From NCBI GenBank assembly GCA_017499595.2, contig CM039008.1, positions 2,728,001 to 2,792,000 on the forward strand: a DNA stretch of 64,000 bases. The letters run 5' to 3'. The notes beneath the pieces are model-generated. The model was not told where the DNA came from. It saw nothing but the letters and a program-made list of their open reading frames with translations, and ran no database searches. Positions 29,751-64,000 of this stretch are shown here, piece after piece (within the stretch, counting starts at the first letter, position 1; every line of letters starts with the position of its first letter). Made by a program: the position numbers and the translations under genes. This stretch comes from Psilocybe cubensis. Taxonomy: Eukaryota.

Positions 29751-29780
29751 ACGCGCATACACCCACCTTTCAGAGTGCAT

Positions 29781-31176: not shown

Positions 31177-31230
31177 ATTGTACGTCCTCGACGCCTGTGT
31201 ACAATATTCCTGTAATTACACCCCAATTGC

Positions 31231-34200
31231 ATGTTTGTGCCCCACAACAAACCGTACTCGCCCCTTTGCCTCCCACCCTCTCGTCTGATGATTTCTTTCT
31301 TCCCCCTTCTGAGCGACCTGAGTCCCCACCCCCCCCTCGAAGCTGCTGACGCATCCGACGACGACGATGAACCTGATGACGACGATGACACGCCGGATTC
31401 AACACCACGCGACAATAACTCTGTCCCGCCCCTCAACACCCCGCTGTTGAATACCGAACAAACGATCCCTCCGGCGTCCCCTGTCCGCAATGCCCCTTTG
31501 GATTGGGCACCTTTGGTGCCTGCCAAAGTGCGCACCATCCTGCTGCAGATACGACAACTGCACCCCGCTTCTTGGCGTATAGAGAAGTTGCTGAAGTCGT
31601 GGGCCCCAAAAGAGCGTTGGGTCGACATTGACAACGACCTCATCAACGCCCTGTGCACCCTGCCGCTCGACCGCGCCACTAATGTCCTCGTGCAGCTGAA
31701 GCAACCACGAGACTACATCTCGCGGATTGGCAGCAAATGCCTCAACATCGGGATGGAGGTTGCCCAGCCTGGTTCCGACTCTACTATTCCCCTCAACGCG
31801 TTGCTGGACAGTGGCGCAACAGGTTGTTACGTCCATGCCGACTTCGTCCGTGAACACAACCTACCCACCAAGCGCCTACCCCACCCGGTCAGCGTCTACA
31901 ACGCGGATGGCTCCCGCAATGCTAATGGTGCCATCACGGACGTCGTCTTCCTCATCATCCGGATTGGTGACCACGTTGAATGTTTGCGGCTCTCCGTCAC
32001 CAATACTGGTTTCTCATGCGTCATCATCGGACACTCCTGGCTATGGTTCCACAACCCTCTTGTTGACTGGCGGACTGCAAAGCTCTGCTTTTCCCGCTGT
32101 CCTTCTTCTTGCGGTGCCAATGTCGTGACGACTACACACCCGGATGGCCACTCGATCAACGTCTGTTGCGACGACTCTGACCCCAACGACCGTGGCACAC
32201 CCTGCGACGCTGACCCCGAGGGCCCCTTCCAACCTCCGTCCGCCGAGGACTGGGCTGCCGCCTTTGCCACCGAGCTCACGGATGGCGAATCAATGTGTGC
32301 TGTCGACATGAATGATTTCCACCTTTCAACTCACTATGCCTCATCCATCGACCCTCGCACTTCCGAGTTCTTGCGTGCTCAACGTGAAGCTGCTTCCTAC
32401 CCTGACAGATATCTGAAAGAGTTTGCACCCGTGTTCTCCAAAGAGGAATTTGACGAGCTCCCACCCCGCCGCCCTTGGGATCATGCCATTAATTTGAAAC
32501 CCGACGCTAAATCCTTCAAGGCTAAGCCGTATCGAATGTCCCCTGCCAAGAGCGCAAAAGTCAGGGAGTGGATAGCTGAGGAGAAGCGAACAGGCCGCAT
32601 TCGCGACTCCATCTCGCCCTTTGCGGCGCCCTTCTTCTTCATCCAGAAGAAGGACGGCTCCCTCCGCCCTGTCCAAGACTACCGCCGTCTCAACGACATG
32701 ACAATCAAAAACCGATACCTCTTGCCCCTCATATCCGACCTCATGGACAAGTTGAAGGGCGCAAAAGTTTTTACCAAGTTAGACGTCCGCTGGGGCTTCA
32801 ACAATGTACGGATTCGGGAAGGCGACGAGCACAAGGCTGCGTTCATCACTGAGTGCGGGCTCTTTGAACCACTCGTCATGTTCTTTGGACTCACCAATTC
32901 GCCCGCCACCTTCCAAAACATGATGAATGACCTCTTTAAAGAGCTCATTGCCAAGGGCCACGTCGTCATCTATATGGACAACATTCTCGTATTTACTGAC
33001 GACATCGATTCGCACCGCTCGCTCGTCAAGCGCGTTCTCTCCATTCTCGAAGACAACAAACTCTACCTGCGCCCCGAGAAGTGCTCCTTTGAGCAGGAAC
33101 AGGTTGAATACCTAGGGGTCATCGTTGGCAATGGCGTCATGTCCATGGACCCGAAGAAAGTTGATGCAATTACCTCTTGGCCGACACCTCGCAATAGGAA
33201 GGATGTGCAGCAGTTCTTGGGCTTCATCAACTTCTACAGACAATTTATCAAAGACTTCTCCCGCACCGCTGCCCCCCTCCACTCCCTTGGAGGTTCTGCC
33301 CCATGGAAGTGGGATGCCGAGGAATCAAACGCCTTTCAACGATTGAAGTCAGACTGTGCCTCCCACCCCGTCTTACTGCTCCCGCGCGACGGCGCACCCT
33401 TCCGCATTGAAGCTGATAGCTCAGGCTATGCAACTGGCGCTGTACTCAGCCAGTTCGTCGACGGGACTTGGCGGCCTGTTGCTTTTGCTTCGAAGTCACT
33501 CAGCCCTGTTGAACGCAACTATGAGATCCACGACCGTGAATTGCTCTCCATTATGCGGTCCCTCGAAGACTGGCGCCGCTACCTCCACGGCTCTGACACC
33601 CTGGTTGAAATTCACACTGACCACAAGAACCTGCAATACTTTATGACCGCCCAGAAACTCAACCGTCGACAAGCGCGTTGGTCCCTGCAACTCGCCGAAT
33701 TTAACTTTGTTCTCGTCCACAAGCCTGGCCCGACAATGATCTGTACTGACTCCCTATCCCGACGCCCCGACTACGACAAGGGCGACTCTGACAACGCGAA
33801 CATTACACTGCTGAAGCCAGAGCACATCCGCCGCACCGCTTCCTGCAAGCTCCCCGACGACCCCATCCTCACTGACATTCGCGTTCACAAACATCAGATC
33901 GAGGAGATGTGGGACAAGCATAAGAACCTTCCGGGCTGGACCCTCGACGACGGCTTGCTATGTTGGCACAACAGGGTCTTTGTGCCTAACAAGGGAAACC
34001 TCCGCCAGCGTATCCTGTCCAACTGCCACAATCACCACACAGCTGGACACCCAGGCCGCGCAAAGACGATTGAACTCGTCCTCCGCAATTTCTGGTGGCC
34101 AACCCTCTCTAAAGACGTGATGCGTTTTGTCGACGGATGCCTGCGCTGCCAATCAACCAAGCCTCTGCGAATGGCGCCGGCTGGACTCCTAACGCCTAAC

Positions 34201-35124
34201 AAAATCCCAACTCGCAATTGGGAGGTCATTTCCTGCGACCTCATCGTTGACCTCCCCAAATCTCGTGGCTTTGATTCTATCTTTGTGGTTGTCGACCGCC
34301 TGTCAAAAATGGTTCGCATTATCCCATGCAAGAAGACAATCACCTCCGAGGGCCTTGCCAAGCTCTTCCGTGACCATGTGTGGAAGGATTTTGGGCTGCC
34401 CCGCAGGATTATATCCGACCGCGGGTCTGTTTTCCTTTCCAATTTCACCCGCGCCCTAAACGACCTCCTCGGCATCTCACACAATGCGTCCACCGCCTTC
34501 AGGCCTCAGACCGACGGCCAGACGGAACGCGCTAACCAGGAAATCGAGCAATACCTCCGACTCTTCGTCAACGCCCGCCAGAACGACTGGGTGGAATGGC
34601 TTGCGTGCGCCGAATTCGCGATCAACAACAAGGTCAACGCTTCGACAGGGTTCTCGCCTTTCTTCCTGAACTACGGCTCCAACCCTATGCGCCCGATGCG
34701 AGTCTCGCGTCTGTCTGACAACCGCGTGCCCAAAGCCCTCGAGTTTGCAACCCAGATGGACGCACTTGCTAAGGAATCAGCAGCCGCGCTCAAACTTGCG
34801 GCCGACGCCATGAAGCAGTCCTACGATGCTTCACACCGCGATGCACCAGTGTTCAACGTTGGCGACCTCGTCATGCTCGATGCCTCCAACATCAAGTCTA
34901 CTCGCCCCTCCAAAAAGCTCGATGTCAAGCGACACGGCCCCTTCCCCGTTACCAAGCGTGTTGGCCTCCAATCTTATACCCTACAATTGCCTGCCTCCTG
35001 GTCAATCCACCCCACTTTTCACGTCTCAAAACTCACTCGCTACACGCCCCCCGCCTTCGAGTCCCAAAGTGTTCCCCACGCGCCTGCCCCGATCCCTCTC
35101 GCGACACCTTCACCTGGCATAGCC
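31231..35124 (+). CDS. pol: Gypsy Pol (protease, RT, RNase H, integrase); RT motif mutated; C-terminus displaced by an insertion
   Basis: LLDSGAT protease; KLDVRWGF, FGLTNSPATFQ, YMDN in place of YxDD; EADSSGYATG RNase H; HNHHTAGH...CLRC zinc finger; ISDRG and DGQTER integrase; GPF module. Confidence 0.93.
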
Positions 35125-37893
35125 GAGTGGTACCTACCATCTTTTTGATAAAACAATAGCAAGTGTTAGCACACTCTTTTTATAACTGTTGATGGTTTTA
35201 TCACAAAGCAAAATAATGAGAAGACTGGTCTATTTCTCATAAGTTTACTTTGCTTTTTCAAAGCCTTTTTCATTAGATAATACCCTTCTTTCTCATTATC
35301 TTTAGGGCGCTTTTTCATTACCTTTTGATTAGATACTAGCCTGGTTATTTGATAAGATTGTTCTACATCAATATATCTTATCTTTGCTTGGTCATTTCTG
35401 ATGCCATGCCATCAAATCAGGAACACTGTGGGTACTTCTAGGCCATGTCTATCAATCCATCAAAGCTATTATTAAATAAACTTTTCTCTCCTCGGCCCCT
35501 TGGTCTATAAATAGTGCTCATCCTATGCTACTTTTGTGCATTGCTGGCAATGGATTGGGCGCTTTTGGGGGCATTTCTGGACCGTTTCCCTTGGTGTTTT
35601 TTGGTAGACCTATAGTTTTAAAGTGTCCCAATCTGAATATGAAATCAGAATTGCAATATCTTTACTCATTATTGTGCAATTAAGCGTACGATGTTTTGAT
35701 CAAAAAGCGCACCTTGAATAGCACCATCCAGGGGCTGGTATGCACCATTTTGACTATGCAATTATTTTTCATTTATAATAGACGGAGTACATGCCAAGTT
35801 TCAGATCAATTGGAGCAGTGGAACCTATTGAACTAGGATGTGCACCCTACCCCTCCTCCTACTCCTTGTACAAATGCCTTCCTGATCAGATAAATTTATG
35901 CCCAACCAGGGCTGGGTAGGCGTCCATTATACCAATTTTTAGAGCCCAAAATCTTGGTTCAATTCTAAGATTTAAGGGTACTACCCCCCATCCTCTCCAG
36001 AATTTGTATATTTTATTATGGGGTAGAATGGCCATTCCCAGCACATATAGGTATGTAAATCTGCTCTATATAGTACCACAGACGCAATACATATCTTTGA
36101 AGCATTCAGAGTGAAGGGGAACACCTTGGTTATGAGGCTAATAAAAAGGTATTGGATGTACAACATAATATGACCATATCACCACTTATACTTCACCAAA
36201 ATGCACATATCTTACATTCACAGATAGCTACTAAGGTCTTCTACATATTATATTCATACTGCCAAATGACCAGAACGCTTAACAAGATGGTACAAGAAGA
36301 AGAAGCATTGTTGTTCAAAAATGGAGGAAAAGCGAAATATGATGTAAAAGATAACACTTATAAAATACATAAACTATACGGCTGTGTAGCCCTAAATGAC
36401 ACCTATCTGTGGTATATAGACTCATGGAAATCCGATGAGTATGAGCTGAGATATGTCAAAATGTATCTCGGAGAAAGGCCAAAGAGGTGACCACAAACAA
36501 AGCATAAATAAAGGCCAATATCCATCCGGGTCTCTGATGGGTTCTTCAACACCTTTCTTTCCATATCTCAGCAACCACTGGTCCGATGCACAACATCCTT
36601 AATGTTCTGGAAAGCTGCATTTTGAGGCTATACTATCCTGCTTTTATATTTCCTGATCATAATCATTTATATATGGTAAATGCGAAAATACTATGCATTT
36701 TGATGAAGAATGGTATTCCCTCTGCAGCATCTCAGCTAATGGACGGATCTTTTTGCAGCCTAAGAAAGATATTTAGGGGGCAACTATAGGTATCTGTAGA
36801 CGTCAAGAATATGATTTATGACAATGTATTTGTAGAGATATGGCCTGATCAATAACCTACCATACCTATCCTCATACCCCCCCTTAAATCAGTATGTTCC
36901 CTTGTTGAAGAGGGCTTTTAAGGGTAAATTTTGGACTCTATGTACTGTTTGTAGTGGATCTACATGTCTTTCAATGGTCTGAGAGCCCATCCTATCCCAT
37001 AATAAAATACACAAGTTCTGGAGGGAGTAGGGGGTAGTACCCTTAAATCTTAGAATTGCACCAAGATTTTGGGCTCTAAAAATTGGTATAATGGACGCCT
37101 ACCCAGCCCTGGTTGGGCATAAATTTATCTGATCAGGAAGGCATTTGTACAAGGGGTAGGAGGAGGGGTAGGGTGCACATCCTAGTTCAATAGGTTCCAC
37201 TGCTCCAATTGATCTGAAACTTGGCATGTACTCCGTCTATTATAAATGAAAAATAATTGCATAGTCAAAATGGTGCATACCAGCCCCTGGATGGTGCTAT
37301 TCAAGGTGCGCTTTTTGATCAAAACATCGTACGCTTAATTGCACAATAATGAGTAAAGATATTGCAATTCTGATTTCATATTCAGATTGGGACACTTTAA
37401 AACTATAGGTCTACCAAAAAACACCAAGGGAAACGGTCCAGAAATGCCCCCAAAAGCGCCCAATCCATTGCCAGCAATGCACAAAAGTAGCATAGGATGA
37501 GCACTATTTATAGACCAAGGGGCCGAGGAGAGAAAAGTTTATTTAATAATAGCTTTGATGGATTGATAGACATGGCCTAGAAGTACCCACAGTGTTCCTG
37601 ATTTGATGGCATGGCATCAGAAATGACCAAGCAAAGATAAGATATATTGATGTAGAACAATCTTATCAAATAACCAGGCTAGTATCTAATCAAAAGGTAA
37701 TGAAAAAGCGCCCTAAAGATAATGAGAAAGAAGGGTATTATCTAATGAAAAAGGCTTTGAAAAAGCGAAGTAAACTTATGAGAAATAGACCAGTCTTCTC
37801 ATTATTTTGCTTTGTGATAAAACCATCAACAGTTATAAAAAGAGTGTGCTAACACTTGCTATTGTTTTATCATAAAAAGTGGTAGGGACTAGT
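35125..37893. mobile_element. Non-autonomous long-TIR (foldback-like) DNA element
   Basis: 8-bp TSD GCATAGCC (35117-35124, 37894-37901). Inverted arms of about 900 bp (about 35125-36037 and 36982-37893). AT-rich spacer of about 950 bp with no recognisable transposase. Confidence 0.93.
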
Positions 37894-37901
37894 GCATAGC
37901 C

Positions 37902-38081
37902 AAAATACTCGCTCACAGATCTCTACGAAGCGGCACCCAATTCCTCATTGTTCTCGACGGTTCTTCTGACGACGACGCTACGTGGTCCGACGCGTGCAAC
38001 TTTCATGATTCTGAAATCTTACTTAATTACATGCTCGAACACAACATCCCGCGCGCCGGCGGCCCTTTAAGGAGGGGGTGA
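37902..38081 (+). pseudogene. Separated C-terminal chromodomain-like segment of Gypsy Pol
   Basis: Removing the insertion and one TSD restores the frame: ...SPGIA|KILAHRSLRSGTQFLIVLDGSSDDDATWSDACNFHDSEILLNYMLEHNIPRAGGPLRRG*, with TGA at 38079-38081 next to the 3' LTR. Confidence 0.85.
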
Positions 38082-38263
38082 TGTTAGAGTAGGACACCCA
38101 CTCTAACAGTAGACACCCTCACGTGCCTCCGTGACACACTCGTAGCTACTTAGTCGCTCCCAGTAGCTACGTAGATCCCAGTTCCTTCTTTGTTTCTGTA
38201 CCCATCAACACGCTTTTGCCTTCACTTTCCGTTCCTCGTCCCCTGTTGGGTCTGCTCCTAACA
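38082..38263 (+). repeat. Gypsy 3' LTR
   Basis: Direct repeat of 29037-29218, preceded by the PPT and followed by the TSD. Confidence 0.95.
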
Positions 38264-38750: not shown

Positions 38751-39858
38751 ATGAACTCCCGCAAATTGACGGAAAGGAAACCATGTGCGTGTGATCTGAC
38801 CATGTGAAAAAAATGCAAGTTACGTAATTGGTCTGGGTCAGGAGGATGTCAATCTGGTCGACGACAACGATGACGATGACGACGACCACAGTGTACCCAC
38901 TGTACTTACACAGAGCGATGCTCACAACGATGGTCCTCGGAAATTTGACGTGAACATTTTCAGCTAACAGCTAACATCAAACTTCTGGCGTACAATCAAA
39001 GGAAAAAGGGGTGGAGAACCGAGATAAGCAGAGCGGATCCTGTCTGCCTCTGTCCGTCTACTCGCTCAGATCAGAACTCGCACGACGAAGATGTAAAGTG
39101 TAGCTAGTACATGTGGGTACGCGGGTGAACGGAGACGGAATGAACGCTGAACATGAACAGCCACGGCGGGTCCCACTCCCAGATGTTCGGGAGAGGTTCC
39201 GGAAATGAATTTCTGTGACCTTTCGGGTGTCGGGTTTTGTGTAGTCCGGATCGGGGGTTGTGGGAAGGCATCTGTCTTTCGAGGTTCGAGAGACAGTCAG
39301 TCGTTTCTGGTTATCCTTTTGCGTTTGCTTGAACAAAGTTACATGTATGATGCTCGATTTTACGGTATGTAATGTGACTATATACTTCCTCAGAAAGAGT
39401 TTTATGATATGCTGTTAACTGTGATTTATCTAGGTTTGTTCGTCGAGAGCCCCCAAGTCAATCATCGTATTGTAGCAAAAGTATATGAGCTCAGACGGAT
39501 ACGAAGGTAAACGGCTGATATTGAAAGTACCTATTGTAGCAAAAGTATATGAGCTACATAAGTACGATAGTAAGAACTTTGTAATAAAATATATGAAGTA
39601 ACAAAAAGGCTAACCTCAGACGGATACGAAGGTAAACGGCTGAGGTTAGATGATTGAATGGAATGAGAAAAATACCACATTGCGGGATGCACCGCAATGT
39701 GTGGCTTCTACTATACAGTTCCAAGAGAATGAGATGTAGCGAGCACATGTGTGCACCGCGAGTGAAAAATGAAAGAAATGGTGTCTATATAAGGCAGGCA
39801 GTAATCACCGTGACTCGGTCGTCCGAATGTCTCAACACTCCCCTCAATCGAACAACCG

Positions 39859-41841
39859 TCAGTCAGCAAGTCCCATCAAGATAATTTGTTGTTCCGTAGC
39901 GTCGCGAGAGAGTGGTTTTGTGAGAATGTCCGCTAGGTTGTCTTCGGAAGGGATATGGACAACTTTGATTTCACCGTCCCCTACTCGTTCGCGTATGTAA
40001 TGGTATCGGATTTGAATATGTTTTGCTCTCTTGTGACCCTTTGCATTCTCCGTAAGAGCAATAGAACCAGTATTGTCATTGAATAGGATCGATGGATTGT
40101 CCTGTGGTAACCCTGCTTCACTCATGAACGATGACATCCAAACCGATTGTTGACACGCTCTACTGAGTGACATGTATTCGGCTTCGGTTGTCGAGAGTGC
40201 TACTGTTTCTTGTCGTTTGGAGCTCCAAGATACCGGCCCTCCTGCCATCATGAAAAGGTATGCTCCTGTCGATCTTCCGGTATCTAGTAAATCACCTGCG
40301 TAATCGGCGTCTACAAATCCGTATGGTTTGAGTCCGTCGTCAGATCCACGTAAGTAACTCAGCTTGTAGTTGAGTGTGCCTTTGATGTAGGCCAGCACAT
40401 GCATAAGTGCTTTCCAGTGCGCTGGGCCAGGGTTTATCTGGAATCGTGCGAGAAGATTGACAGCAAACAAAAGGTCAGGGCGAGTAGCGACTTGTGCCCA
40501 CATGATACCGCCTAGGACTTCTCTGTACGGTTTGTCTTGCATATAAAATTTTTGCTCGTCGGTTTCCGCGCAGTCTTTGAGTGAGAGATCGATTCCGAGT
40601 GGTAATGGTGTGTATTTGGGGTTGCAATCCCACATGTTGTGTCGTTTTAATAGTTTTTCAAGGTATGATCGTTGGGAAAGTGTAATCGTGCCCGTTGTTT
40701 TGTTCTTTTCCATCCGTAGACCCAAAATCGATCAACCTGTTGTTTCATCTTCCTCCACCCTCTTCACCTCGTATGCATCCTCCAACTCCCCTATTGCCTT
40801 CATCTTCTCTTCCTGCGATGTCGATCCACCCACTACATCATCTGTATATGTGACATTTAACGTATATTGGCCGTTGAGGACACGATGTCGTACGCATGGG
40901 TCCGCTCTCGATTTGTAGTAACCCAATGCATCATAGGTACCGGACAATTCTTTTTCCCAGTCGTGAGCCCCTGCCATCATCCCGTACACGGTTTTGTTGG
41001 CACGATATACCAGATGTTCCTCCCCTGTGGCAATGAAACCGGGTGCTTGCTCAGTGTATACATCGAACTTGTTTTCGCTGTTCAGATATGCCGCAACAAA
41101 ATCGACCTGCCATAGCTCCAGATTAAGGTGAGCAATGATTGCTATACACATCCGCATCGATTCCAGTCGGGCAACGGAAGCGTATGTCTGGTCGAAATCG
41201 ACACCTGGAATCTGGTTGTACCCGAGTGCAACAAGTCGAGCTTTCAACTTCGAGATGTTGCCGTCTGCGTCATATTTGAACCCATAGACCCATTTCAGTC
41301 CGATAACCTTTCGATCTTTCGGTCTCTCGACTTTGCTAAACACTCCACGTCGTACCATAACTGCCATCTCTGCTTCCATTGCCGGTTGCCACATATCCGG
41401 ATTTCTTATTGCGTCGTTGTACGATTTTGGGAGGTATGTGTTATTGTCATATTCTGCCATGAGCGCAATGTAAGAATCTAGATCGCTTTGGAAGTTTTCG
41501 AGGTGTTGGGATTGGAAGTCAGCGACATCTAGGTCCATATCATATCCAGGAGATGCGAGTACAAAATTTGCCTTTGGTTCATCATTTGCCCACTCCTCCC
41601 CTCTTTCCATAGCTTCCACAACTCTCCTTTCCGAGGCTTCAGATTGTTTCGCCGCTTCCGTGGTCCTAGTAAGTCGTGTCGATCTTCTGATTACTTGTGG
41701 GGGCAATTGATCTGTAGGTTTTGCATTGTGTGTTGATGTGGTTGTTTTTGTACAATCAGGGGGCATGGTATTATTCTGTGGTCCAAAACGATGTCGAGGA
41801 GCGATGGGATATGGTGTGTTCATGGGTCTATTGCTCGGTGG
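39859..41841 (-). pseudogene. pol: Copia A RT/RNase H portion
   Basis: KARLVALGYNQIPGVDF, QVDFVAAYLN, YTDD, FVDADYAG, SSKRQETVALSTTEAEY, ADILTK. In-frame TGA at 40732-40734. Confidence 0.92.
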
Positions 41842-44800
41842 TGTTGAACGACTATTATTAATAAAGTTCACGTTCGACCGTGTGACTCTCAGAGTCATAT
41901 GATAAGTCATGTGAATAGATTACTAAGTAGATAGATGACTAAGTACTATACAGTAGTTACTGTCACTAGTCACATGTAACGCACTCTAGGTGTATATAAG
42001 GGCGACACTAGTGCCCTCTAATGACAAGCGGTTTTAACAACCCACTTGAGTAGCTACAACTCAAGTAACACGACCCAAAGGGTAAGTATTAAGTCAAGTC
42101 CTTAGCCACTGCGTACATAGACTGTGTAGAGTAGTCTTGGGCACATTATGCTGCTCAACAGGTTATGGGCCCCGTAGCCATAACGACGCAGGCTTGTTAG
42201 CCTTGCTGTCGACGGCACTGGCCTAGGGACAAACTTGCCCCATGCTGCTCTGAAAGATAACGCCTATTTTGGCGATCTAGATGAGTGTGCAAAAGATCTT
42301 AATCTCGATTGGATCTTAGATCTGATCTTGAGATTGATTGGGCCTGACCAGCCCAACTGTTTCCTTCTATTTTAAGTTCAGGATGTGAGAAAAGCCTTGC
42401 TGACTTATTCTTGTCACAGGCTCAAGCTTTAAGCGCACTAAGAATGTCTTCCAAAGCAACCGTATCTGTTTCCGAATTCCCCAAATTCGATGGTTCTAAC
42501 TATCGTAAATGGGCTGACAAAATGCTTCCCATATTCCTCCTGACTGGCGTTGATGGGGTTATTTCTGGAGATGTCGTGGCCCCTTCTCCAATTGAAGGAG
42601 AGCCTGCATTCCCATCCCCTGTTGCTCCGGCAACAACTGTTAACGCAGCTCAAATTGAGCTGTGGAAAATCCAATTCCAACGCTGGTCGCAAAGATCTTC
42701 GTCGTTTGAAAAAGCGATGAAAGACTTTAAGGAGCAGAATTCCAAGGCACTAGGTGTCATCGTGAATTCCTTGATCCCATCTATTTGGGAAACAGTCAAG
42801 GGAAAGACCGCGAAGGGGGCATGGGATGATCTGAAAGCAAAATACGATAAAGTTCAATTTGTTGAAGTGATGGAGGACTTTAAACGTCTGACCACCTTCA
42901 AATTTGATCTTTTGGATCCTACCCCTCAGCTGGCCCGTTTCAGAGCCATCTACGAGCATGTCAAAAAGGTCGAAAATGCGGATCTAGTATCCGAGACCAT
43001 GGCATGTCTCATCTTATTCTCACGTTTACCCCTTGCGGTATCGCCCAATCAACCGCCCTCCATATATCAAGACCTTATTAATGATTATGGAGACAAGACC
43101 AAGATTGACGACATGAAGCTGGAGGCTATCTCCGCTGATATCCGCAATCGTTGGGGAGCGCGGTTTGGTAATCTGGATGACAGGCAAAAGCCTAAAAAGG
43201 GTACGACATATGACCCTAAGCCTGCACCAAAGACCGGCCCTTCCCGGGCACCGCAACAGTCGGCTGAACGCAATACTGTGATCCGACCAAAAGGGGAACA
43301 CCCTCACTATCATCCTTCAAAGACCCCTAATCAGGGACAGTCTCAGGGTGATAATCAGGAGAAGAGAATTCGTAAGCGTGCCCCACGAGGCAAAGGCAAG
43401 CAGCGTGCACAAGGCAATACAGCCTTAGCGGATGATGTCTTTATGGCATCAACATTGACGGTTCTCGAACCGGCAATTCCAGCTCCCACCACGTCAAGGA
43501 TCATCGAGATCAACGGTAGAGGAAGTATCTCCTCCCGTACCTCTGCTCCGGCTGGGCCCTGGAGAAATCCGGACACACGCATGGCGCCATACCCGGCTCC
43601 TGCTGCCGCACGCAGCCTAGCTTCCAGAATTGGTGTAAAGCCTACTTTGCAGGCACTCCAGATCATGGAAAGCGTTGCCACGAGCAGCTTACAAATTCCT
43701 TCGGATGTCTCCCTCGTAGAAAGGTTGAAGACTCCGTCCGTCAACTCTGAAACTATTGACAATCACATGGTCGTTGATGGTGAGATCACATCTCCGGAGA
43801 TCGAAAAGCTTAATAATGAGCTATTTGGACCGGAACCAAAGCAATGGGGTGATATCCCAAACTTTGATGATCAGAGAGAACGGTCTCCTGATGTTCCTAT
43901 TGAGGAACGTGTGGATTACGGAGAAGACAATGAGGATCTCTATGATGGTTACTACGATGACCATTTCGTTGATAGGCAAGTAAGTTCTAGTTCTAGAAAT
44001 TGGACCATAAATAACGCTGAGATTCCCACAGGGACTACCCCATCTAGAGACGACAACGACTCAACAGTCGACCGGCCGGAGGAGGAGGAGTTCCCTGTAG
44101 ATATTTACTACTCATTTGTACATGATGTATACCAAAAATATCTATCTCATTTCGCGTGTTGTCCAGATTGCAAAGGAAAAGGAACTGAAAAACCCAAAAA
44201 GGGGAAAGAAGCCATAACGGCTTGGTTAATGGACAGTGGTGCTAGTGTGCACTTTACTGGCGATAAGTCTGATTTCGCAAGTTACCAAGACTTTGCTGAG
44301 AATAATCGACCTATTTCGCAAACTGCCACTACCACAGTGCCTATCACCGGTTTTGGAACAGTCTTCGTAGAAGTGGTTTCACACTCCGAGGATCTGGGAC
44401 ATGAAGTCTGCCGACTCCATCCTGTTCTATACATGGAACAATTACATGTCCGATTAATGTCGATGGGACAACTCCTGTCATCCGGCATGACCATAGAAGG
44501 AACAGCTAAAGTCCTTCGGTTCTTTGATTTGCCTAAAAAATCATATGGCCTGCAAGCCAGGGCAGATTCAATTGAATCGAACAGACATCCAATGTATTGG
44601 GTGCATACGCGCATTGTCTCTGGAAAAGACATTAGCACGTTATCTTCGACTCTTCAAGAGTCAAGTGACCTTTGGCATCGACGCCTTGGTCATCCCTCTG
44701 ACAATGTTCTAAGACATTTTAGGGACTCCACTAAGAACTTTCCCAAAATAAGTGTACCCAAGGACAAAAATGTCTGTGAAGGCTGCGCAAAGGGAAAAAT

Positions 44801-47714
44801 GACTGATAAGTCATATGACGAAAACCCCAAACGCGCGAAGAAGCCTTTTGATCGTATTCATTGTGATCTCAAGACATTTTCTGTTTATTCCTACCAGAAG
44901 TGTAAATACTTCATGTCCTTTTTGGACGACCACACCCCACACGTATGGCTCTACTTTCTTAAAAAGAAGAGTGATGCCGCTGCGGCTGTGAATTCTTTCG
45001 AGAAAATGGTGGAAAAACAGTACGGTACCTCCGTCAAAGAATACTTCTTTGATAATGGCGGAGAATTCGTTAGTACCGAGTTCTTGGAACGGCTACAAAA
45101 TGCCGGTACACGTGCCTGCTTTACAGCTCCCTATGCTCATCAGAGCAATGGTCGAGCTGAAAGACTAAACAGGACAATTATGGAAAAGTCTGAAGCGATG
45201 AGGCATTATGCCTGTCTACCGGATAGCTGGTGGCAATTTTGCTGTGCCCACGCTGTCTTCCTATACAATAGGACTCCGGTAAAACGCATCGAGTGGAAGA
45301 CACCCCATCAGGCCCTTAAGGGGGAGTTACCGAGCCCACGGTCCGCCAGTCCTCCAAGTTCTATGCCAGGGCCTAGTTCACGTCCTCCTCGTGACGATGA
45401 CGATGATCAGGATGACGATCAGGGATACGTAACACCTCCCACGTCAAATCAAAGACCAAAAATGCCTGATACACCTGTCAAGCCTCCGCCCAGAAGGTCG
45501 GATAGAACTCGGAAAGTACCAGAGCGGGAAGGCAATGTTTACCGACCCGGAACAACAACCAATAAAGATCGACGTAAGAAGCTGCAGACTGTTTCACACG
45601 GAGTGGCATCCGTCCCTGATTACGTGCCACTTACTCGATCTAGTAGCAATCGCAATGTTGAATCTGGTATCCCTAATTCAGGGACGGAAGGGGGAGTAGC
45701 AAACAGTCTTTTCGCGACATTACTTTCCAAACGGGTCTGCAAAATTATCTGCGCTGCTGATTATGGTCTCACAAAGGATGTCCGTGACTGGACCCTGCGT
45801 GATTTGCTAAAATTACCAGCTGACCAACAGAAGGAATAGAGACAAGCCATGAAAGACGAGTTAGAGGTCCTCGTCAAAAGAGAGGTCTATGAGCTTGTCG
45901 ATCTCCCTAATGGCCAAAAAGCCATCAAATGCAGATGGGTCTACGACATCAAAACTGATGGTTGGAAAAAGGCTCGTCTGGTAGCCAAAGGCTTCTTACA
46001 GATAGAAGGCCTAGACTACGATGAGTTATTCTCACCTGTGGTCATGCTACCAAGTGTTCGCACAATATTTGCCCTTGCCGCACTCGAAGGGTGGAAAGTC
46101 TGGTCCCTTGACGTCATATCGGCCTTCCTTTATGGGCCGTTAGACGAGGAGATATATATGGAACAGCCTGAGGGCTTTGTTCTAAAGGGACAGGAGAAGA
46201 AAGTACTCCGGCTTAAAAAGGCAATTTATGGGCTCAAACAAGCCGCACGTGCATGGTGGTTCGAGCTAGACAGAAGTCTAAAAGAGCTTGGATTCACCAG
46301 ATTATACTCGGACGCCGGCATCTTCATCTCACGTCATACCGACGGCACGTTAGCAATAATGTTTGCCTATGTCGACGACATCCAGATCACCGGACCTAAC
46401 TCCGAACTCTCACGACAGAAGAAAGATCTCTTTATGAAGAAGTGGGATTGCCGGGATCTCGGAGAATCACGGGAGTTTCTCCGTATGGCTATTGATTATA
46501 AAGACGGCAAAATCCTCTTGAGTCAAGCCAACTATTTGGAGAAGGTTCTAACTCGGTTTGGCATGAGCGATGCTAAAGCTGCTAGAACTCCCTTACCCAC
46601 GGGCTATCGCCCAATGCCGTTTGATGGTACTAGTTCGGCACAACTTCGCTCGCAGTACCAATCAGTGATTGGTTCCTTGCTTTACCTAATGCTTGGAACT
46701 AGACCTGATATTGCCTATGCAGTGACTCAGATGGCAAAGTTTGCTTCCAATCCGTCTGAAGACCACATGAACAAGGCTAAATATATTATGCGGTACCTTG
46801 TTGGCACACGCAAATATGCCTTAGTTTATGATGGGAAGTCTCGCGCAGGCCTATATGCCTATTGTGACGCCTCTTATGGAGATGACCAATCAGAGCTCGA
46901 CCTTAAGCGTCGGTCTGCACAAGGTTACTTCTTTAGCTTGGCAAATGCTGCGGTCATGTGGAAATCACAGACACAGAAGTTAGTCTCGACGTCGTCTACT
47001 ATGAGTAAATACATGGCACTCTCCGACTGCGCCAAAGATTGCGCATGGATTAAAAATCTATTTGCGGAACTGGCCAAACCAATTTCCCACGTCCCAGTCT
47101 ATGCGGACTCACATGGTGCAATATTCAACGCGCAGAATCCCGTGACACAAAAAGGGATTAAGCACGTGGAGATTCGCTATCATTACATACGGGAACAAAT
47201 AGAGCAAGGCACACTCAAATTATATGCAGTTCCGACTGCTGATAACGTTGCCGATATGTTTACCAAGAATCTAGGTCCTGATCTATTCTTGAAACATAGA
47301 TCCGCTCTTGGCCTTGAGTTTTACCCGCTAGATTAGTCCGTTCATGAAAACAAGTAGAGTCCCGCCTTATGGCGCGCGCACCACTTGAAGGGGAGTGTTG
47401 AACGACTATTATTAATAAAGTTCACGTTCGACCGTGTGACTCTCAGAGTCATATGATAAGTCATGTGAATAGATTACTAAGTAGATAGATGACTAAGTAC
47501 TATACAGTAGTTACTGTCACTAGTCACATGTAACACACTCTAGGTGTATATAAGGGCGACGCTAGTGCCCTCTAATGACAAGCGGTTTTAACAACCCACT
47601 CGAGTAGCTACAACTCAAGTAACACGACCCAAAGGGTAAGTATTAAGTCAAGTCCTTAGCCACTGCGTACATAGACTGTGTAGAGTAGTCTTGGGCACAT
47701 TATGCTGCTCAACA
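41842..47714 (+). mobile_element. Ty1/copia LTR retrotransposon B nested in copia A
   Basis: 319-bp TG...CA LTRs at 41842-42160 and 47396-47714 with 3 differences; TSD GGTGG (41837-41841, 47715-47719); PBS GGTTATGGGCCCC; PPT GAAGGGGAG. Confidence 0.97.
42444..47336 (+). pseudogene. gag-pol: Copia B gag-pol polyprotein, decayed
   Basis: KFDGSNY, WLMDSGASVH protease, WHRRLGH...CEGC, DNGGEF and SNGRAER integrase, YVDD RT, YCDASYG RNase H. In-frame TAG at 45837-45839. The usual LRVFGC/SH3-like segment is missing after KGELP (about 45330). Confidence 0.92.
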
Positions 47715-50332
47715 GGTGGAGCATTTCCCGCATTTGGCGGTAGTGGCGCATTTGGTGGCGGCGCTTGCGGTACTTCGACAGGGTCGTTATGTTGTATAGA
47801 TGTTTGAGTTGCTGGATGGGGTTTGTCATCTTCGACTTCGTGAAATATGGGATCGTCGTGGAGTGCATCTTGTTTGAACATTGTTCTATGCCCTAGTCCT
47901 TCTTCAAATACTACATTCCTACTCTTGATGATGTCTCCGGTCTTTGTATCAAGAAGTTTGTATGTGTCACGTCCATAATATCCGATTAGGGTGTATTTAA
48001 TAGATGTAGTGTCGAGTTTGGATGGGTTTATTTCTTTGGGGATTTTTGCATATGCATGAGATCCTATTGCTCAAAGGTGCGATACGTCCTGTCGTTTGTT
48101 GAACCAAATTTCCGCGGGAATTCTTCCAGGATGTCGACGAGATGGCATGAGATTTAGCATGTATATCACGGCTGATAAGAGATCTGCCCAGTAAGATGGC
48201 GGAAGCCCCGAATCGCAACGGACGCAGCGCAGTCCCTCAATGACCGTACGATTAGTGCGTTCTGCAACTCCGTTGCCAGAATGTGCGTATGGTGCGGGAG
48301 TCTCGATTCGGATGCCGTTCTCTTTGCAGAAAGTTTCCAATGCCCGATTTAGAAATTCTTGTCCCATATCCATACGAAAACACTTGATTTTTCGTCCTGT
48401 TTGGAGTTCGGCTTCAGCTTTGTATTCTTTTACTGCCTGTAGGGTCGCCTCGCTAGTTTTCTCCGATAAATAGTATTCCTTTCGGTAAGAAGAACCCCCA
48501 TCCGTCATTATGAGTGCATACTCAGCTCCCCCTGTTGATCTGACCCTTGCTGGACCCCATAGATCGAGATGGACTCTGTCAAGAACTCCAATTTCAGGTT
48601 CAACCTTTTCGTCATACAGTCGGTTGGTTTGTTTTCCGTATACACAGTCCTCACACAGTCCAATAGGTTCCTTTGTTTCTGGTTGGGTAATCTGAAGACC
48701 GTCAACAAGACCTTTGGACGACATCTCCTTGATCGTGCGCTCGCTGAAATGGCAGAATCTTCGATGCCACTGGGATAAGGTAGTCGGTTTTTCGTGTGAT
48801 TTCGCAGGCATCGCCTTGTCCAAATTTTTGTTTGTAGTGAGTTCTCCATCTTTGATTTCTTCAAAGAGATACATCCCATTAGTTTTGCTAACTTCTAGCA
48901 TCACTTTTCCCTTTGGGTCTCTTCCTCCGCCAAAGTTTACGTTGAAGCCGGCGTCATCGAAACGGCTAATAGAAATGAGATTCGCAGCAAAATCGGGGGT
49001 GTGTAGAGCGTTTGACAATGATAGTGTTGTACGATGATTGTTGGATTTGTAGTGCTTGACTACCGTTCCCTTTCCGTGGATTTTAAATCTTGCTGATTTA
49101 CTTGCTGCCTGTCCCTCTCTCACGTTTGTGAACGGTTCATAGTTGGAAAAATCGGATTGATTCGCAAAACAGTGGTTGGATGCACCGGAATCAGCGTATG
49201 TAGTCCTAATTACATCCATCTTCCCTGCATTAGCTACCATTGCTTTATCACTGATTTCACATCCCTCGTTAATTAGGTACTCGATGGATGGTATGGCGGT
49301 CACTTTGTAAGTCTCTTGATCCGAGTCGGATTGTGCATCTCTCGCTGACTCGTCTGGATTAGGCGGATTGTCTGCCAGTGACATGTCAGCAACCAATGCA
49401 TATGCTGTGGTTACTACGGCAGGGTTTGCTGTGGTCGACGGGTTGGAAGCATTTGTGCTGGTGGATTCAGCCGATCCGGTAGTTCCTCCTCGTTGGCCGA
49501 AGCCTGGGGGAAACTGGCCTTCCTTTCCTCCTCCCTTCCAGTAGCACATCTCGATGGTATGTCCACGTCTCCTGCAATTTGGATTCGAGCATCGCTTTAG
49601 ATTGTAATCTGATCCGGTTTTTCCATTCGCCTTTAGAGCAACCGCTGTGATTCCTGGGGTTCTAACCTTCACATTCCGATTAATTCGACTCCAGTGCATA
49701 TCGAGGAGGACGATTGTATTGGTAGAGGTGGCACTTGTGTGGAGGGATGCAATGATAGTGTCCCAGGATGATGGTAATGATGTGAGGATTATTTCACGGA
49801 AGTCCGAGTCGCTAATGTTTGCGCCGATTGAGTTGGCATGCTTGTGCTTGATGTGCAGAGTCGCCATATGAGTAGGAAAGTCTCCTCCTTCTTCCATCCT
49901 TACGCTACGGAGATCGCGTTGCGCATAGACTCGTGCAAGGTCAGTTGAGTTCTTGTACCGATCCTCAAGAGACTTCCACGCTTCCGCAGCCGTACCATCT
50001 GTTTTCAGACCCAAACCAATCGGATTCTTCACGTTCTGCTTGATTGCGATCATGCACCAAGCGTCTCGTGCATCCCATTCTTCAGCGCTCGGCCTGAGTG
50101 AGTACCATGGAGTTTCCTCCGGTGGAAGAGGGATTGCCAACGGATCTGTAGAGAATTGTCCCGGGGATGGAGTTTCGGCAGGATTGGGAATTTTCCCTTC
50201 GAGATAACCTCGAGCGCCTCGCACACGGCATGCCATGAGTATGGTTTCGCGCCATTCTAGGTAGTTGGTACCATCGAATTTTTCGTCGTCTGGTAGTTGC
50301 GGCGGAGTGATTCCTGTCGACTTTGACGACAT
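47715..50332 (-). pseudogene. gag-pol: Copia A gag-protease-integrase portion
   Basis: KFDGTNY, CSNPNCRRRGHTIEMC knuckle, YADSGASNH, WHRRFCH...CEDC, HLDLWGP, SGNGVAER. In-frame TGA at 48071-48073, after which the frame continues (AIGSHAYAKIP...SRNVVFEE) to the copia B insertion. Confidence 0.92.
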
Positions 50333-51264
50333 GCCAATACCGATGTCTTTCAGGTATGAAGTAGTTTGAATGTGATCCGATGATAGTATCCGTGTTTACT
50401 GAGTTAATATAACTTTGTTTCGCTCACGGGGCCCATAACCTATTGTAGCAAAAGTATATGAGCTCAGACGGATACGAAGGTAAACGGCTGATATTGAAAG
50501 TACCTATTGTAGCAAAAGTATATGAGCTACATAAGTACGATAGTAAGAACTTTGTAATAAAATATATGAAGTAACAAAAAGGCTAACCTCAGACGGATAC
50601 GAAGGTAAACGGCTGAGGTTAGATGATTGAATGGAATGAGAAAAATACCACATTGCGGGATGCACCGCAATGTGTGGCTTCTACTATACAGTTCCAAGAG
50701 AATGAGATGTAGCGAGCACATGTGTGCACCGCGAGTGAAAAATGAAAGAAATGGTGTCTATATAAGGCAGGCAGTAATCACCGTGACTCGGTCGTCCGAA
50801 TGTCTCAACACATCGATCCAGATTCAACTGAGCAAGTTCGCAGTTCGCATACTTACATCTTCAAGCTTCACCCCAGCGCACTTTTTTCGCCAATTTAAGA
50901 AGTAAGTATCCCAGCATGCTGTGCTGAGAAGGATTAAACACGTTATCTTTCACTAATCACTATACGATCAGTCAAGTCATGGTCAAGGTCAAGTCAAGTT
51001 ATGTCAAAGTCAAGGGAATAGATCCCGAGATAAGGATATGCAAGTTATTTTCGCGCATCAGCCGTCGACCGTCGAACAGCGATTGACTTCTCCCCTGAAT
51101 ACACGTGGATATGGATAGCTTCGCGTTTTGGATTTTTTGCGTTTGGCGTTTTGTATTGTGCTTCGCGTCTATGTATATCTGCATAAATGCAAAATCCTCC
51201 TCGTCGTCGTATCACAGGAAGAAAGCGCCTCCCCCTCCTCCCCCTACACACAAGCACGCATCCA

Positions 51265-54691: not shown

Positions 54692-56634
54692 ATGACGATG
54701 GCGACTAGAGATACGCTGCATCGTGAGTGCTGTTCTTTGTGATTGGGATGTGTTGGTGATTGAGTTGGGTGCCGTCGCTAGCTACGCCGGAGCTGAAGCA
54801 TATGACCTCGAACAGCGCGCTCGTCTCCCCGCGCAGGACATCCCAGCACCTGCGCACCTCCGACGCCCGCCTCGCAGCTGGCTCCCGCAGTCCAAGCTCT
54901 ATCCCGTCCTCCCCGACCTCTATGTACGTCACGCTTCTTCTCCCCTTCCCCACACTCCACCCTCGGAACTAATACACCGCCCACAGACACTCCTCCTCAT
55001 CCGCCATCTTCGAGCGCGACATCGAGCCCCTAGTGCCACCGTCGCCCCCGCTCGCATCGCATCACCACCACCACCACCCGCTCAAAGACCCGCATCGCAC
55101 CGCCCGCGCCAAGGGCTCCGAGGCACTCGAACAAAGCGTGCCCTCCGTCCTCGACAGCGCCGCAGCCGTCCTCAGCACCCTCGAACTCGAACCCATCCCT
55201 GGCCTACCCTCCTCCTCATCCACATCCCCATCCGCACTCTCCAGCCCCTCTTCCACCTCCGCCGATCCCCATCACCAACACTCACACTCGCATTCACACC
55301 ACCTATCAGACGGTGGCTCTGCTACCCATCTCTTCGCAGACCAGATCGCGGTCGTCGCGCCCGCCCCGCCGTCCACTACGTCGTTTGCGCTATTTGGCGG
55401 CGCGAACCCTGCGGGGCCGGGTATTGGTGGTGGTGGGGGAGGGAGCGCGAGCGGGTTCGCGAGCCCGATAGGTAGTTTCCGCAGTCGCTCCCCGAGCCCG
55501 CTCGGCGGCTCGCGCATCGCCATCGCCAGCCCGACCTCGGTGCTCGGGTTGCAGCTCAACTCTACTGCGGCGACCAGTGCGCCGGGCTCGGTAGCTGGCT
55601 CGCCGCCCCGTATCAACTCGCTGGCTGATGCTCGTCATGCGGGCGACGCTAACAACAATCACAACGGTAACACCGCCGCGGCGCCTTCGATCAAGGTGGA
55701 TGATGCCCCATCATCGATTTCGTCCGCATCGGAAGCGGAAGCGGAGGTGCGATCGACATCGCCACCTGCGCTGATCCCCATGCAGCAGTCTTCGTCCACT
55801 TCGTCCACTGCGAGTGCTGCATCCACCACGACGATAACGACGACGAGCGCTGCGTCGTCGCCTTCGTCGGCATATACACCTCTCCCTGTCCCACTTTCGC
55901 CTCTCTCGCCACTCTCACCGCTGTCCCCTCTCACACCGCCCACGTCTACATCCACATCGGCGTCCACGTCGGCGATGCCCTCGACATCGCAGCCTCTATC
56001 CCCTTCATCCCCCTCATCATCTTCGCAGCATACACTCGCACATGCACACGCACAGGCGCTCACGGCGCCGCGCACGCGCCTTTCGTTCATGTCGTACACG
56101 GACCTGTTGAGCGCGACGCCCGCTGCGACGACGAGTCTCGTGGCGCTTACGAGCGGGGCGAGTGTCGTTGAGCCGCCGCCTAGGATCGTCGGTGTTGGTG
56201 TGGGTGTGGGAGGTATTTTGAGTGGTGCGGGGAGTATACATGGTGTGGGAGCTGGAGAGGATAAGCATTTACAGGGACAGGGACAGGGACAGGGGAGTAG
56301 GACGCCGAGCGTGATTAATCTCCCGCTCCTTACACATTCGCCGTCTGCGGCTGTACCACTTGGACTCCCTCTCCCCGTCCCTCTTCCTCTTCCACTCTCC
56401 CATCCCGTCCCGTCCGGCTCACCTCCTCATCCACACTCGCAAGCACACTCACATATAAGCAAGAAAGACCGAGACGCGGCGTTACCGATTTTGGAAGATA
56501 TGACGATGACGGGGAGGGAGTGGGAGAGAGCGGGGTTGGGGAGGGGGTTGGAGGAGAGGTTGGAGGCGATTGAGGCGCTTGAGGTGGGTGGGGTTGGGGA
56601 GGTGAGGGAGGTGAGGGAGGGGGTTGAGGTGTGA
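54692..56634 (+). CDS. Uncharacterised low-complexity Ser/Pro/His-rich protein
   Basis: Two GT-AG introns join MTMATRDTLH, ...SIPSSPTSI and HSSSSAIFERDIEP... to ORF 55033-56634. Ordered-looking blocks: EQSVPSVLDSAAAVL, RLSFMSYTDLL, EWERAGLGRGLEERL. Confidence 0.75.
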
Positions 56635-57171
56635 GGTGGTGTGTGGTATGGGAGGGAGAGGTGTGAGAGGAATGTTTGGGAGGGGGAAGGGGAGGGGAGG
56701 GGAAGTTTGAGAGGGAGGTTGGAGAGGGGGAAGGGGAGGGGTATTTTCCACCATTACACTCGCTCACCTCTCATCGCATCGCATCATCCGCCACCCCGTC
56801 TCTCCGCCACCCCGTCTCTCCGTCTTCCGTCCCTCCGTCTCTCTGTCTCTCTGCACCACTATGCAACCGCCAACCGTCACGCGTATATGCACTTGCACTT
56901 GCACGCGCACGCGCACGCGAAGTTATGGTATGTTATGATAATGTTATGATAATGTTATGTCTTTCGGCTTCGGCTTCGGCTTGCTTCTGTGCGTGCTCGT
57001 TTGTTTGGGCTTGTGCTTGTGCTTGTGCTTGGGTGTGTGGATGTGTGGATGCGTGGAGTGCTTTAATCGTTCTCTTCGCTTTTTTTTCGTTTCTTTGCGT
57101 TTCTTCGTATTTCTTTGTGTCTTTTATGTCTACTTTACCTTTTCCGTTACCTTTGCATCATTAGCGCCCTA

Positions 57172-57222
57172 TTTTTTTTTTTTTTTTTTTTGTTTTTTTT
57201 GTTTGTTTTTTTTGTTTGTTTT
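57172..57222. repeat. Poly-T / T-rich low-complexity tract
   Basis: About 20 consecutive T followed by interrupted T runs, in a 3' UTR-like region. Confidence 0.8.
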
Positions 57223-57946
57223 AGTGTAATGTAGTGTAATGTACATGTTTTGGCGTTGTGTTTGTCGTTTCTTCTCCTCTCCTCTCTACTTTTTTTTTAC
57301 TTTTTACTTTTTTTTACTTTTCACGGTTTACATTTCATGATCACGGTTTACTCTACAGTTCGCGGTTTGCAATTAACACTATTTCAAAACTTCAGTTTCG
57401 GTTACTCGATGGGATACCATTGCATTGCATTGCTGATTGTGATTGTAATTGTATTGTGAGCGGACTCGGGACGCCTCCTCCCTTAGACTCTGTGAGAAAT
57501 TTGGATCTGTGAGGGGTATCGTCTGCAATCTGCAATCTGGAAAATTCAGCGCCGTTGACAGCGTTCGTATTTGAATTTATGAAAGTTGTAGCCTGTGAGC
57601 ATTCACTGAGCGTTCACTGTGCTAATGGCCCGTTTTTGATTTGTCTGTTAGTGTTAGTGTTTGCTAATTATCGGAAAGAGGTATGGAAAGTTCTAAATGG
57701 GTGATTCTGGGTTTTTTGAGAGCGGATGAGCAAGCAGGAGATGTGGTGTCCCAAGGCGGGGTCATAACAGTGCCAGTTCCCTAATTATCAAATTGGCAGT
57801 CACTATCTCTATCTTGTAAGTAGTGACCATGGGTCCTCCATGCAGAAATTTATACCCAATGACCGATGTCCAATGACCAATGTTCAATGCACAATGCACA
57901 ATCCGCCGCCCAACAGATCATACTTCACAACCATCAAAAGTGGTAC

Positions 57947-63693: not shown

Positions 63694-64000
63694 TATTGAC
63701 ATAAACGAACAGTGAGCTCAGGCGGATACAAGAAGTAAACGACTGTATATTCATGTACCTATTGACATGAATGAACAGTGAGCTATATAGGTACATGATA
63801 GTAAGAATAAATGAATATAAATGTTATAGAAACAACACTGCTAACCTCAGGCGGATACGAGAAGTAAACAACTGAGGTATATCCGTGTACGAAATGGGAA
63901 GAGTAAGCACATTGCGGAATAAACCGCAATGTATGGCTTGAGCTGTATAGTACCAAGTAAAAGACATGTGTACACATGGCAGAAGAAATAATAATCAATG
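63694..64000 (-). mobile_element. LTR of a diverged copia A-related family, running off the right edge (3' LTR or solo LTR)
   Basis: Colinear with the copia A LTR (TATTG start, GAGCTCAG.CGGATAC, GTACCTATTG, GCTAACCTCAG, CACATTGCGG...CCGCAATGT). No PBS on its left side. Confidence 0.85.

Follow-up and report, generated by a model that had tools for sequence, protein, structure and literature searches.

An intron-like insert beside its own joined flanks in the long terminal repeats of a Ty1/copia element from Psilocybe cubensis

We analyzed a 64,000-nt stretch of Psilocybe cubensis contig CM039008.1 (positions 2,728,001 to 2,792,000 of assembly GCA_017499595.2; hereafter the window) and found that a minus-strand Ty1/copia retrotransposon within it carries, in each of its long terminal repeats (LTRs), the same short sequence twice: first as two blocks, A and B, held apart by a 61-nt insert that begins with GT and ends with AG, and then as A joined directly to B at the end of the LTR, next to the primer binding site (PBS). 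The feature is real, non-random, and conserved in a second LTR family. The joined copy is likely to have come about through splicing, a judgment that sums over readings in which the element keeps its intron, in which the copy is the relic of an accident, and in which transcription starts at the second A. The explanation that we consider best, and to which we give about an even chance, is that the insert is a real leader intron, that the joined A-B was reverse transcribed from the spliced leader, and that the element's own replication holds the split and joined copies in step.

Along the minus strand of the 5′ LTR, the first copy of block A (29 nt, beginning TCAG; 50588–50616), the proposed leader exon 1, is followed by the intron-like insert (61 nt, GTTAGC ... 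TTCTTACTATC ... TGTAG; 50527–50587), the first copy of block B (23 nt; 50504–50526), which is the proposed exon 2, a 12-nt spacer GTACTTTCAATA (50492–50503), and the joined A-B that ends the LTR (50441–50491). Within the joined copy A lies at 50491–50463 and B at 50462–50440, and the last G of this terminal B (50440) is at the same time the first base of the PBS. The A copies and the B copies are exact repeats in the 5′ LTR and likewise in the 3′ LTR, and the joined A-B equals A-insert-B minus the GT..AG segment at 52/52 bases. The preliminary description of this DNA had given these blocks and their order and had called the terminal A-B the exact spliced product of A-intron-B. Every coordinate proved right, the same arrangement is present in the 3′ LTR, and the identity is complete in both. 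It had also proposed a second intron of 64 nt (50503–50440), of which the spacer is the start. This segment does begin with GT and end with AG, but it is simply the tandem unit, and its donor has no G at +5; similarly, the statement that removal of both introns gives A-B-PBS again holds, but it follows from any tandem repeat.

We scanned the whole window on both strands for split/joined arrangements, using 12+12-nt junctions whose halves recur within 600 nt at a gap of 35–150 nt with at most two mismatches. Clusters with more than four matches occurred only in the two LTRs of the element (gap 61) and in an LTR at 63.7–63.9 kb (gap 63), and both the gap-61 and gap-63 clusters permit GT..AG on the minus strand. 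The remaining 31 clusters were single matches or small by-products of the same LTR repeats, none with GT..AG, and neither block A nor block B was found in 100 shuffles. Tandem repeats are common in LTRs, and the arrangement might have arisen with no splicing at all, through a DNA tandem duplication of ~125 nt after which, at AG microhomology, the second unit lost 61–63 nt (or the first gained them), with GT..AG a coincidence. A and the insert do both end in AG, which supplies a 2-nt microhomology and three possible registers for removal of the 61 nt. Only one of these registers is GT..AG, and we estimate its occurrence by chance at ~3/256, less when G at +5 and a pyrimidine at +6 are also counted. 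Ordinary LTR tandem repeats are straight copies, whereas here the second unit lacks an intron-sized GT..AG segment and the units co-vary, which a duplication followed by a deletion leaves unexplained. Nor would that account lead one to expect an insert matching host introns in size, or a donor, branch-like block, and acceptor that were kept while block B changed at ~9/24 positions. With no other split/joined pair of such strength in the window scan, we consider an origin without splicing highly improbable. The notion that the insert is a hairpin skipped by reverse transcriptase was dropped, since predicted stems do not bridge its two ends. Within the insert there is also a B-like stretch (50550–50572, minus strand) that ends in ACAAAG and differs from B by 6 edits in 23; it is probably a chance occurrence in AT-rich sequence, and the idea that it represents an older layer of the same process was too weak to keep.

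The insert resembles introns of host genes in the window. Two introns of a gene for an Old Yellow Enzyme-type protein could be placed through Pfam profile continuity (positions 83 to 84 and 231 to 237), the first of 60 or 63 nt with donor GTTCGT and the second of 66 nt with donor GTGTGT. The LTR inserts of the two families (61 and 63 nt, with T at +3 and G at +5) fit these introns in size and donor, and because a placed host intron has the donor GTTCGT, the host does use the combination of T at +3 with G at +5. A GTNNGY rule is known for basidiomycete donors. The insert borders read GAG/GTTAGC...TGTAG/C, with the GT...AG ends of an intron, and the second family has the same donor and acceptor. 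A candidate branch site, CTTAC, lies ~19 nt before the acceptor within an 11-nt block common to both families, and no canonical CTRAY was present. A frame-joining scan of host open reading frames (ORFs) gave candidate introns of 49–66 nt, which are unverified and a loose indication at most. These features suggest a spliceosomal intron in the 5′ leader that lies inside the LTR, a proposition that we hold as part of the best explanation as a whole and at the same roughly even level.

The preliminary description had let its reading depend on conservation of GT and AG in related LTRs, and a diverged LTR in the window keeps GAG/GTTAGC ... TAG/CTCA. This LTR, found with a fuzzy block-A search and alignment, has the same layout on the minus strand and is cut by the window end (64000–63694). 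It consists of A (30 nt, 63875–63846), an insert of 63 nt (GTTAGC...TATATAG, 63845–63783), B (24 nt, 63782–63759), a 12-nt spacer that starts with GTAC (63758–63747), and the joined A (63746–63717) and B (63716–63694), and it ends in ...CAATA. No PBS comes after it, which makes it a solo or 3′ LTR. The two families are ~70% identical, and aligned along their length they have a mean column identity of 82%. While 47/65 columns match between the inserts and 9/13 between the spacers, the GAG/GTTAGC donor, the 11-nt TTCTTACTATC ~20 nt before the acceptor, and the TAG/CTCA acceptor are identical. The second family also occurs under another organism label, in a contig of X6, one of the public sequencing runs described below (loose ends at 50649 and 50680). 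Raw reads under that label show block A in two more repeat contexts with GT straight after it, as GTTCGT (54 reads) or as GTTAGCCTT followed by unrelated sequence (11 reads). A degenerate block-A pattern had no matches in viral contigs, and two matches to it in metagenome contigs were dismissed as chance, one lying in what looks like a bacterial-type coding stretch and the other in unrelated A-rich DNA.

The strongest new evidence comes from co-variation between the split and joined copies, a pattern that regeneration of A-B from a spliced leader would predict. Four sequences were aligned, the split and the joined copy from each of the two families. Of the 53 A+B columns, 37 were invariant and 11 were family-specific with both copies agreeing; none was copy-specific, four were single changes in the second family, and one fell in none of these classes. 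The two copies of block B in one LTR match at 23/23 and 21/23 positions, vs 15/24 between families; for block A the corresponding values are 29/29 and 27/30 within an LTR and 24–25/30 between families. Drift after an ancient duplication would produce changes that are copy-specific or unshared, not the 11:0 seen here. The split and joined copies thus appear to exchange information across the 61–63-nt insert, unless the joined copy arose anew in each family. Either way, the 11:0 pattern points to a process that removes exactly the GT..AG segment, as splicing plus reverse transcription does, and DNA-level conversion between repeats of 23–29 nt would not remove exactly that segment. In the first family the identity begins exactly at the first base of A, with only 4/12 positions matching in the 12 nt that precede each copy of A. 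Such a sharp boundary fits a copied segment that starts at an RNA 5′ end.

Much of this could also have been left by an accident. The insert would still be a real intron, and A-B would be a cDNA image added by a rare aberrant first-strand transfer, either separately in each family or once with later recombination: strong-stop DNA made from spliced RNA would have joined the end of an unspliced 3′ LTR, and the element would otherwise replicate from ordinary unspliced RNA with the layout as neutral baggage. Unspliced RNA would copy the layout faithfully, and separate, fairly recent duplications are expected to give the same co-variation, although the same rare event would then have to occur twice in sister families and become fixed each time. 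In the second family the 12 nt before A match the spacer at 10/12 (counted by eye), much like A (27/30) and B (21/23), as a single duplication with even decay would leave them. The first family instead demands a separate replacement of its upstream 12 nt that ended exactly at A (4/12 there, 52/52 across A+B). Reverse transcriptases can copy the cap, which could account for the single G that separates ...CAATA from GTAC in both families. Direct repeats inside reverse-transcribed regions tend to be deleted, as known from retroviruses; the layout has nonetheless outlived roughly 30% LTR divergence, and no deleted form was seen in four of four runs. We regard an accidental origin as possible but unlikely.

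The element that carries this layout occupies 39463–50815 including its target-site duplications, as delimited by its LTR pair, flanks, and Pfam matches. Its assignment to Ty1/copia rests on the Pfam families Retrotran_gag_2, Pol_BBD, gag_pre-integrs, rve, and RVT_2. The ORF at 50332–48071 contains gag_2, Pol_BBD (the protease barrel), gag_pre-integrs, and rve, and RVT_2 lies in the ORF at 41910–40732, downstream of the integrase ORF, giving the copia order of integrase before reverse transcriptase (RT). The last ORF of the element (40713–39859) had no Pfam match, and RNase H was thus not confirmed. The 5′ LTR (370 nt, TGTTGAG...ACAATA, 50441–50810), delimited by pairwise alignment with the 3′ LTR (39468–39837), is identical to it at 370/370 positions, and the 3′ LTR has the same A-insert-B-spacer-A-B order by alignment and exact block matches. 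The 5-bp target-site duplication CGATG stands at 50815–50811 and 39467–39463. Both LTRs have TG..TA termini instead of the usual copia TG...CA, and the second family likewise ends in ...CAATA; this is a terminal-dinucleotide variant that does not outweigh the copia protein evidence. A polypurine tract, GATTGAGGGGAG (39849–39838), lies immediately 5′ of the 3′ LTR, and the PBS, GGTTATGGGCCCCGTGAGC (50422–50440, minus strand), directly follows the 5′ LTR. The core 12-mer of the PBS, GGTTATGGGCCC (50440–50429), carries the complement of a CAU anticodon loop (TTATG), and the same 12-mer abuts the 5′ LTR of a nested copia element at 42161–42172. There are no tRNA genes in the window. A search of a protein collection gave 64 relatives at E ≤ 1e-20, the best at 66% identity. 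The nearest named relatives are from Agaricales (Panaeolus, Agrocybe, Agaricus, Cyclocybe, Psilocybe, and Mycena; ≤66% identity), which points to an agaric as the most likely host, and this copia family itself was absent from the collection. A protein-atlas comparison of a host ORF gave only a HET-like hint, with Ascomycota as the commonest group, and was set aside as uninformative about the host. In viral contigs, neither the Gag-Pol protein nor a 13-sequence alignment found a relative.

The layout and mobility of the element could be followed in four of 14 public sequencing runs (X5, X6, X7, and X11), which comprise three contig sets and one raw-read set and carry two further organism labels. 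All four contain the full layout. Forms without the 61 nt or without the tandem copy were absent from the reads and contigs of these runs, which is weak evidence given the few copies. The insertion is polymorphic in X11, where 22 reads contain the 3′ flank of the filled site and 23 reads the empty site. The empty site (flanks 50811 and 39467 joined, with one letter different) is also present in contigs of X5, X6, and X7. LTR depth in X11 is ~4x the internal depth. The family is young and recently mobile, with its layout intact. Differences among LTR copies (50441–50810) in X5–X7 and X11 are mostly G-to-A and C-to-T (8/13 listed places in X11), a bias that may reflect cytosine deamination or repeat-directed mutation.

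Folding predictions suggest how one LTR could be spliced and the other not. In a hairpin formed by CUAACCUCAG...CUGAGGUUAG (50583–50622, minus strand), the 6 nt immediately before A pair with the last exon base and intron positions +1 to +5; the predicted energy is −18.6 kcal/mol (z −7.2, 0/200 shuffles as good), and the hairpin is kept in a 150-nt context. For an RNA starting at 50616, the prediction is only −7.0 kcal/mol with the donor left single-stranded. Because the hairpin needs the 6 nt upstream of A, the donor would be buried only where upstream RNA is present, namely in the 3′ LTR, and the hairpin could explain splicing at the 5′ LTR vs retention at the 3′ LTR. A shorter form is predicted for the second family (−12.8 kcal/mol), and an 8-bp version is implied in reads. 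A second predicted hairpin (50500–50538, minus strand; −14.9 kcal/mol, z −4.8) joins the insert's 3′ end (GUACUUAUGUAGC) to the last bases of B together with GGUAC, and B is looped out. The second family keeps the core of this hairpin, GUACYUAU/AUAGGUAC, except that C replaces U opposite G, and the pairing is a possible reason for the conserved GTAC at the start of the spacer. As a separate observation, the 36-nt block-A hairpin (50585–50620) has ~2.5x the depth of the rest of the LTR in X11. At least one other repeat, which is more abundant and differently flanked, also contains it (54 and 59 loose-end reads; a 479-nt contig in X6), and it looks like a module common to several LTR families.

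In the mechanism that we propose, which refines that of the preliminary description, transcription would start at or beside the first base of block A (TCAG, ~50616), a position suggested by the beginning of the repeat and by the logic of the hairpin. The leader intron would be removed, and the 64-nt tandem unit would be lost as well, either as a weak second intron or by a template jump within B, to give an RNA that begins A-B-PBS. Minus-strand strong-stop DNA primed at the PBS would copy B and A (~52 nt) and anneal to the joined A-B of an intron-retaining 3′ LTR on the same or a co-packaged RNA. Extension through the spacer, B, the intron, A, and the unique 3′ (U3) region would then rebuild the full LTR, and an intron useful for mRNA accumulation in a basidiomycete would be restored in each new copy. 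What we add is a possible source of the difference between the two ends: the donor hairpin would open when the RNA starts at A, as at the 5′ LTR, and close when the upstream 6 nt are present, as at the 3′ LTR. The second hairpin would tie the 3′ end of the intron to the next donor, and the first removal would free the second intron. The motive given in the preliminary description, intron-dependent mRNA accumulation in mushrooms, is in print: mRNA accumulation is reported to be higher with introns in both S. commune and C. neoformans (PMC3744415). A role of the layout as an intron-keeping device is plausible, and the mechanism is about half supported. In its most specific form, the proposal is that an agaric Ty1/copia lineage replicates from fully spliced RNA, uses the spliced image as its terminally repeated (R) region, rebuilds the intron in both LTRs, and keeps the 3′ LTR unspliced by means of a hairpin; this we advance tentatively, at somewhat below even chances.

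The position of the transcription start also separates the proposed mechanism from a reading in which A-B is a plain R region and unique 5′ (U5) region. Genomic RNA would then start at the second A, and the upstream A-intron-B would belong to U3 as a duplicated core promoter or an alternative start; a start at the first A would yield an intron-containing mRNA for protein, and spliced RNA would never be reverse transcribed. Both A copies begin with the start-like TCAG, RNA from the second A would be identical to the doubly spliced RNA with no weak second intron needed, and textbook transfer would regenerate the LTR. What the U3 region contains fits this less well. A palindrome, ATTGCGG-N6-CCGCAAT (50652–50671, minus strand), lies 36–55 nt upstream of the first A and not of the second. 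It matched three times in the window (50652–50671, 39679–39698, and 63911–63930, all in the U3 regions of the two families) and never in shuffles, and it is a candidate upstream activating site with a CGG-N6-CCG core, a spacing type known from zinc-cluster factor sites. A start at the second A would further leave the donor-burying hairpin without a role and would offer no route for information from the split to the joined copy, such that the 11:0 co-variation would again need repeated origins. We think it improbable that A-B is a plain R-U5.

Several observations weigh against the best explanation and its mechanism. A TATA-like motif in U3 (TATATAG, 50758–50764, minus strand) precedes block A by ~145 nt, a rather long distance if transcription starts at 50616. 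The donor of the proposed second intron, GTACTT in the first family and GTACAT in the second, has no G at +5, and a host candidate intron with cagGTACTT at 15970 is the sole such case and unverified. The ends of that second intron are the ends of the tandem unit, and GT..AG at these ends, expected by chance at ~1–2%, proves little. An intact 61-nt intron would ordinarily be removed from the 3′ LTR as well; the hairpin that would prevent this is a prediction, and its stem in the second family reaches only to +2. The conserved 11-nt run is not significant alone, with ~0.4 such runs expected at 72% identity. Only two families were compared, one of them a single truncated and partly decayed copy, and the alignment of B between them is short and gapped (15/24 to 18/26). 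The boundary at A in the first family could equally be a recombination junction, the even decay in the second needs no ongoing copying, and separate origins of the joined copy in the two families would lead one to expect co-variation just as much; two families cannot separate ongoing regeneration from two independent accidents. An unspliced RNA starting at A would copy the LTR faithfully by the textbook route, which means that the joined copy is not proven necessary. While the layout, its conservation, and the co-variation are observed and the hairpins are computed from the same letters, we infer splicing, the start and poly(A) sites, the unspliced 3′ LTR, the strand-transfer route, and the benefit from DNA alone. 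The earlier interpretation is thus partly supported: its copia type and exact GT..AG relation stand, the conservation and the co-variation agree with it, and its closing argument from the second intron holds for any tandem repeat.

A literature search, with subscription papers outside its reach, found no description of an intron inside an LTR or of a spliced copy in an LTR. Functional splice sites, with spliced and unspliced RNAs coexisting, are familiar from retroviruses and their env, the gag RNA of Drosophila copia, and plant Ogre elements. The solution known from such elements is that only unspliced RNA is packaged, and their introns lie outside the LTR or span it, with no processed copy known to be kept. 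Here, in contrast, the whole putative intron lies within the LTR and its processed product stands in tandem. Processed gene copies are alike in that the joined A-B bears an exact intron loss, and unlike in that it is only 52 nt long, stands 12 nt downstream of its own source inside an LTR, and has apparently been refreshed.

The nearest analogue to this copia LTR is Penelope of Drosophila virilis, a retroelement with a short intron in a repeated end. According to its description, the 75-bp intron lies in the repeated regulatory end, 46 bp past the start site; most transcripts have it spliced out, and its splice sites are conserved in a 67%-identical relative (PMC2377424). From the same source, deletion of the intron abolishes reporter expression, the intron is retained on transposition, and intron-less copies would in the authors' view be disadvantaged (PMC2377424). 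A spliced leader image beside the intron is not described in the text available to us (PMC2377424). Penelope belongs to another class, whereas the element here is a copia with RVT_2, rve, copia gag, tRNA-type priming, and LTR strand transfers. The Penelope hallmark of a telomerase-like RT with a GIY-YIG endonuclease was not found, and Pfam shows copia-type gag, rve, and RVT_2 only. The element may resemble Penelope in how it keeps a leader intron, yet it falls outside that group. In its priming it may resemble Ty5 and Drosophila copia, which prime from the anticodon stem-loop half of initiator tRNA (PMC5371799; bioRxiv 10.1101/2025.04.25.647736). The PBS here follows the LTR directly and carries the complement of a CAU loop, which would fit such priming.

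The surroundings of the element contain further repeats and several host genes. A nested Ty1/copia element (41842–47714, plus strand) interrupts the RT region; its LTRs are 319 nt long with three differences and TG..CA ends, and its target-site duplication is GGTGG. It is odd that the LTRs of this younger element differ at three places and those of the older element that it interrupts at none. The nested LTR contains a candidate leader intron with a consensus donor, AAAGG/GTAAGT, at 42082 and possible ends at 42119 or 42128, and no joined copy. A further LTR-like pair at 29028–38263 (plus strand), two repeats of 191 nt with 96% identity at a distance of 9045 nt, has ORFs of 534 and 1310 aa between them and probably marks another retrotransposon. 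Three copies of a 78-nt repeat (22260–22337, 24270–24347, and 26854–26931) are 72–78% identical at spacings of 2.0 and 2.6 kb, and the region 55200–57300 consists of low-complexity G/A-rich and C/T-rich tracts with GGGAGG-type repeats. The host genes near the elements are that for the Old Yellow Enzyme-type NADH:flavin oxidoreductase with its short introns (18030–19233), a HET-domain gene (19740–21897), and a CxC6 cysteine cluster of a type associated with KDZ transposases (1220–1798), all on the minus strand.

Reverse transcription of spliced RNA erases introns, and for this reason one would expect a retroelement either to have few introns or to restrict packaging to unspliced RNA. Basidiomycetes put such elements in a bind, since intron-less genes often give little mRNA there (PMC3744415). 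If the proposed mechanism is true, the element would have a third way out, in which a spliced image of the leader is stored in the LTR as a landing site and the intron is copied back from the 3′ LTR. If so, a retroelement would here be retaining an intron despite splicing it, by a route not described before. The layout would offer a signature that can be searched for in any genome (a split block, GT..AG, and a joined block next to the PBS), would provide a natural DNA record of a start site and a splice junction, and would suggest a design for intron-carrying fungal retro-vectors. Even as a fossil, the layout would be a clear imprint in DNA of a strand transfer that went astray on a spliced template.

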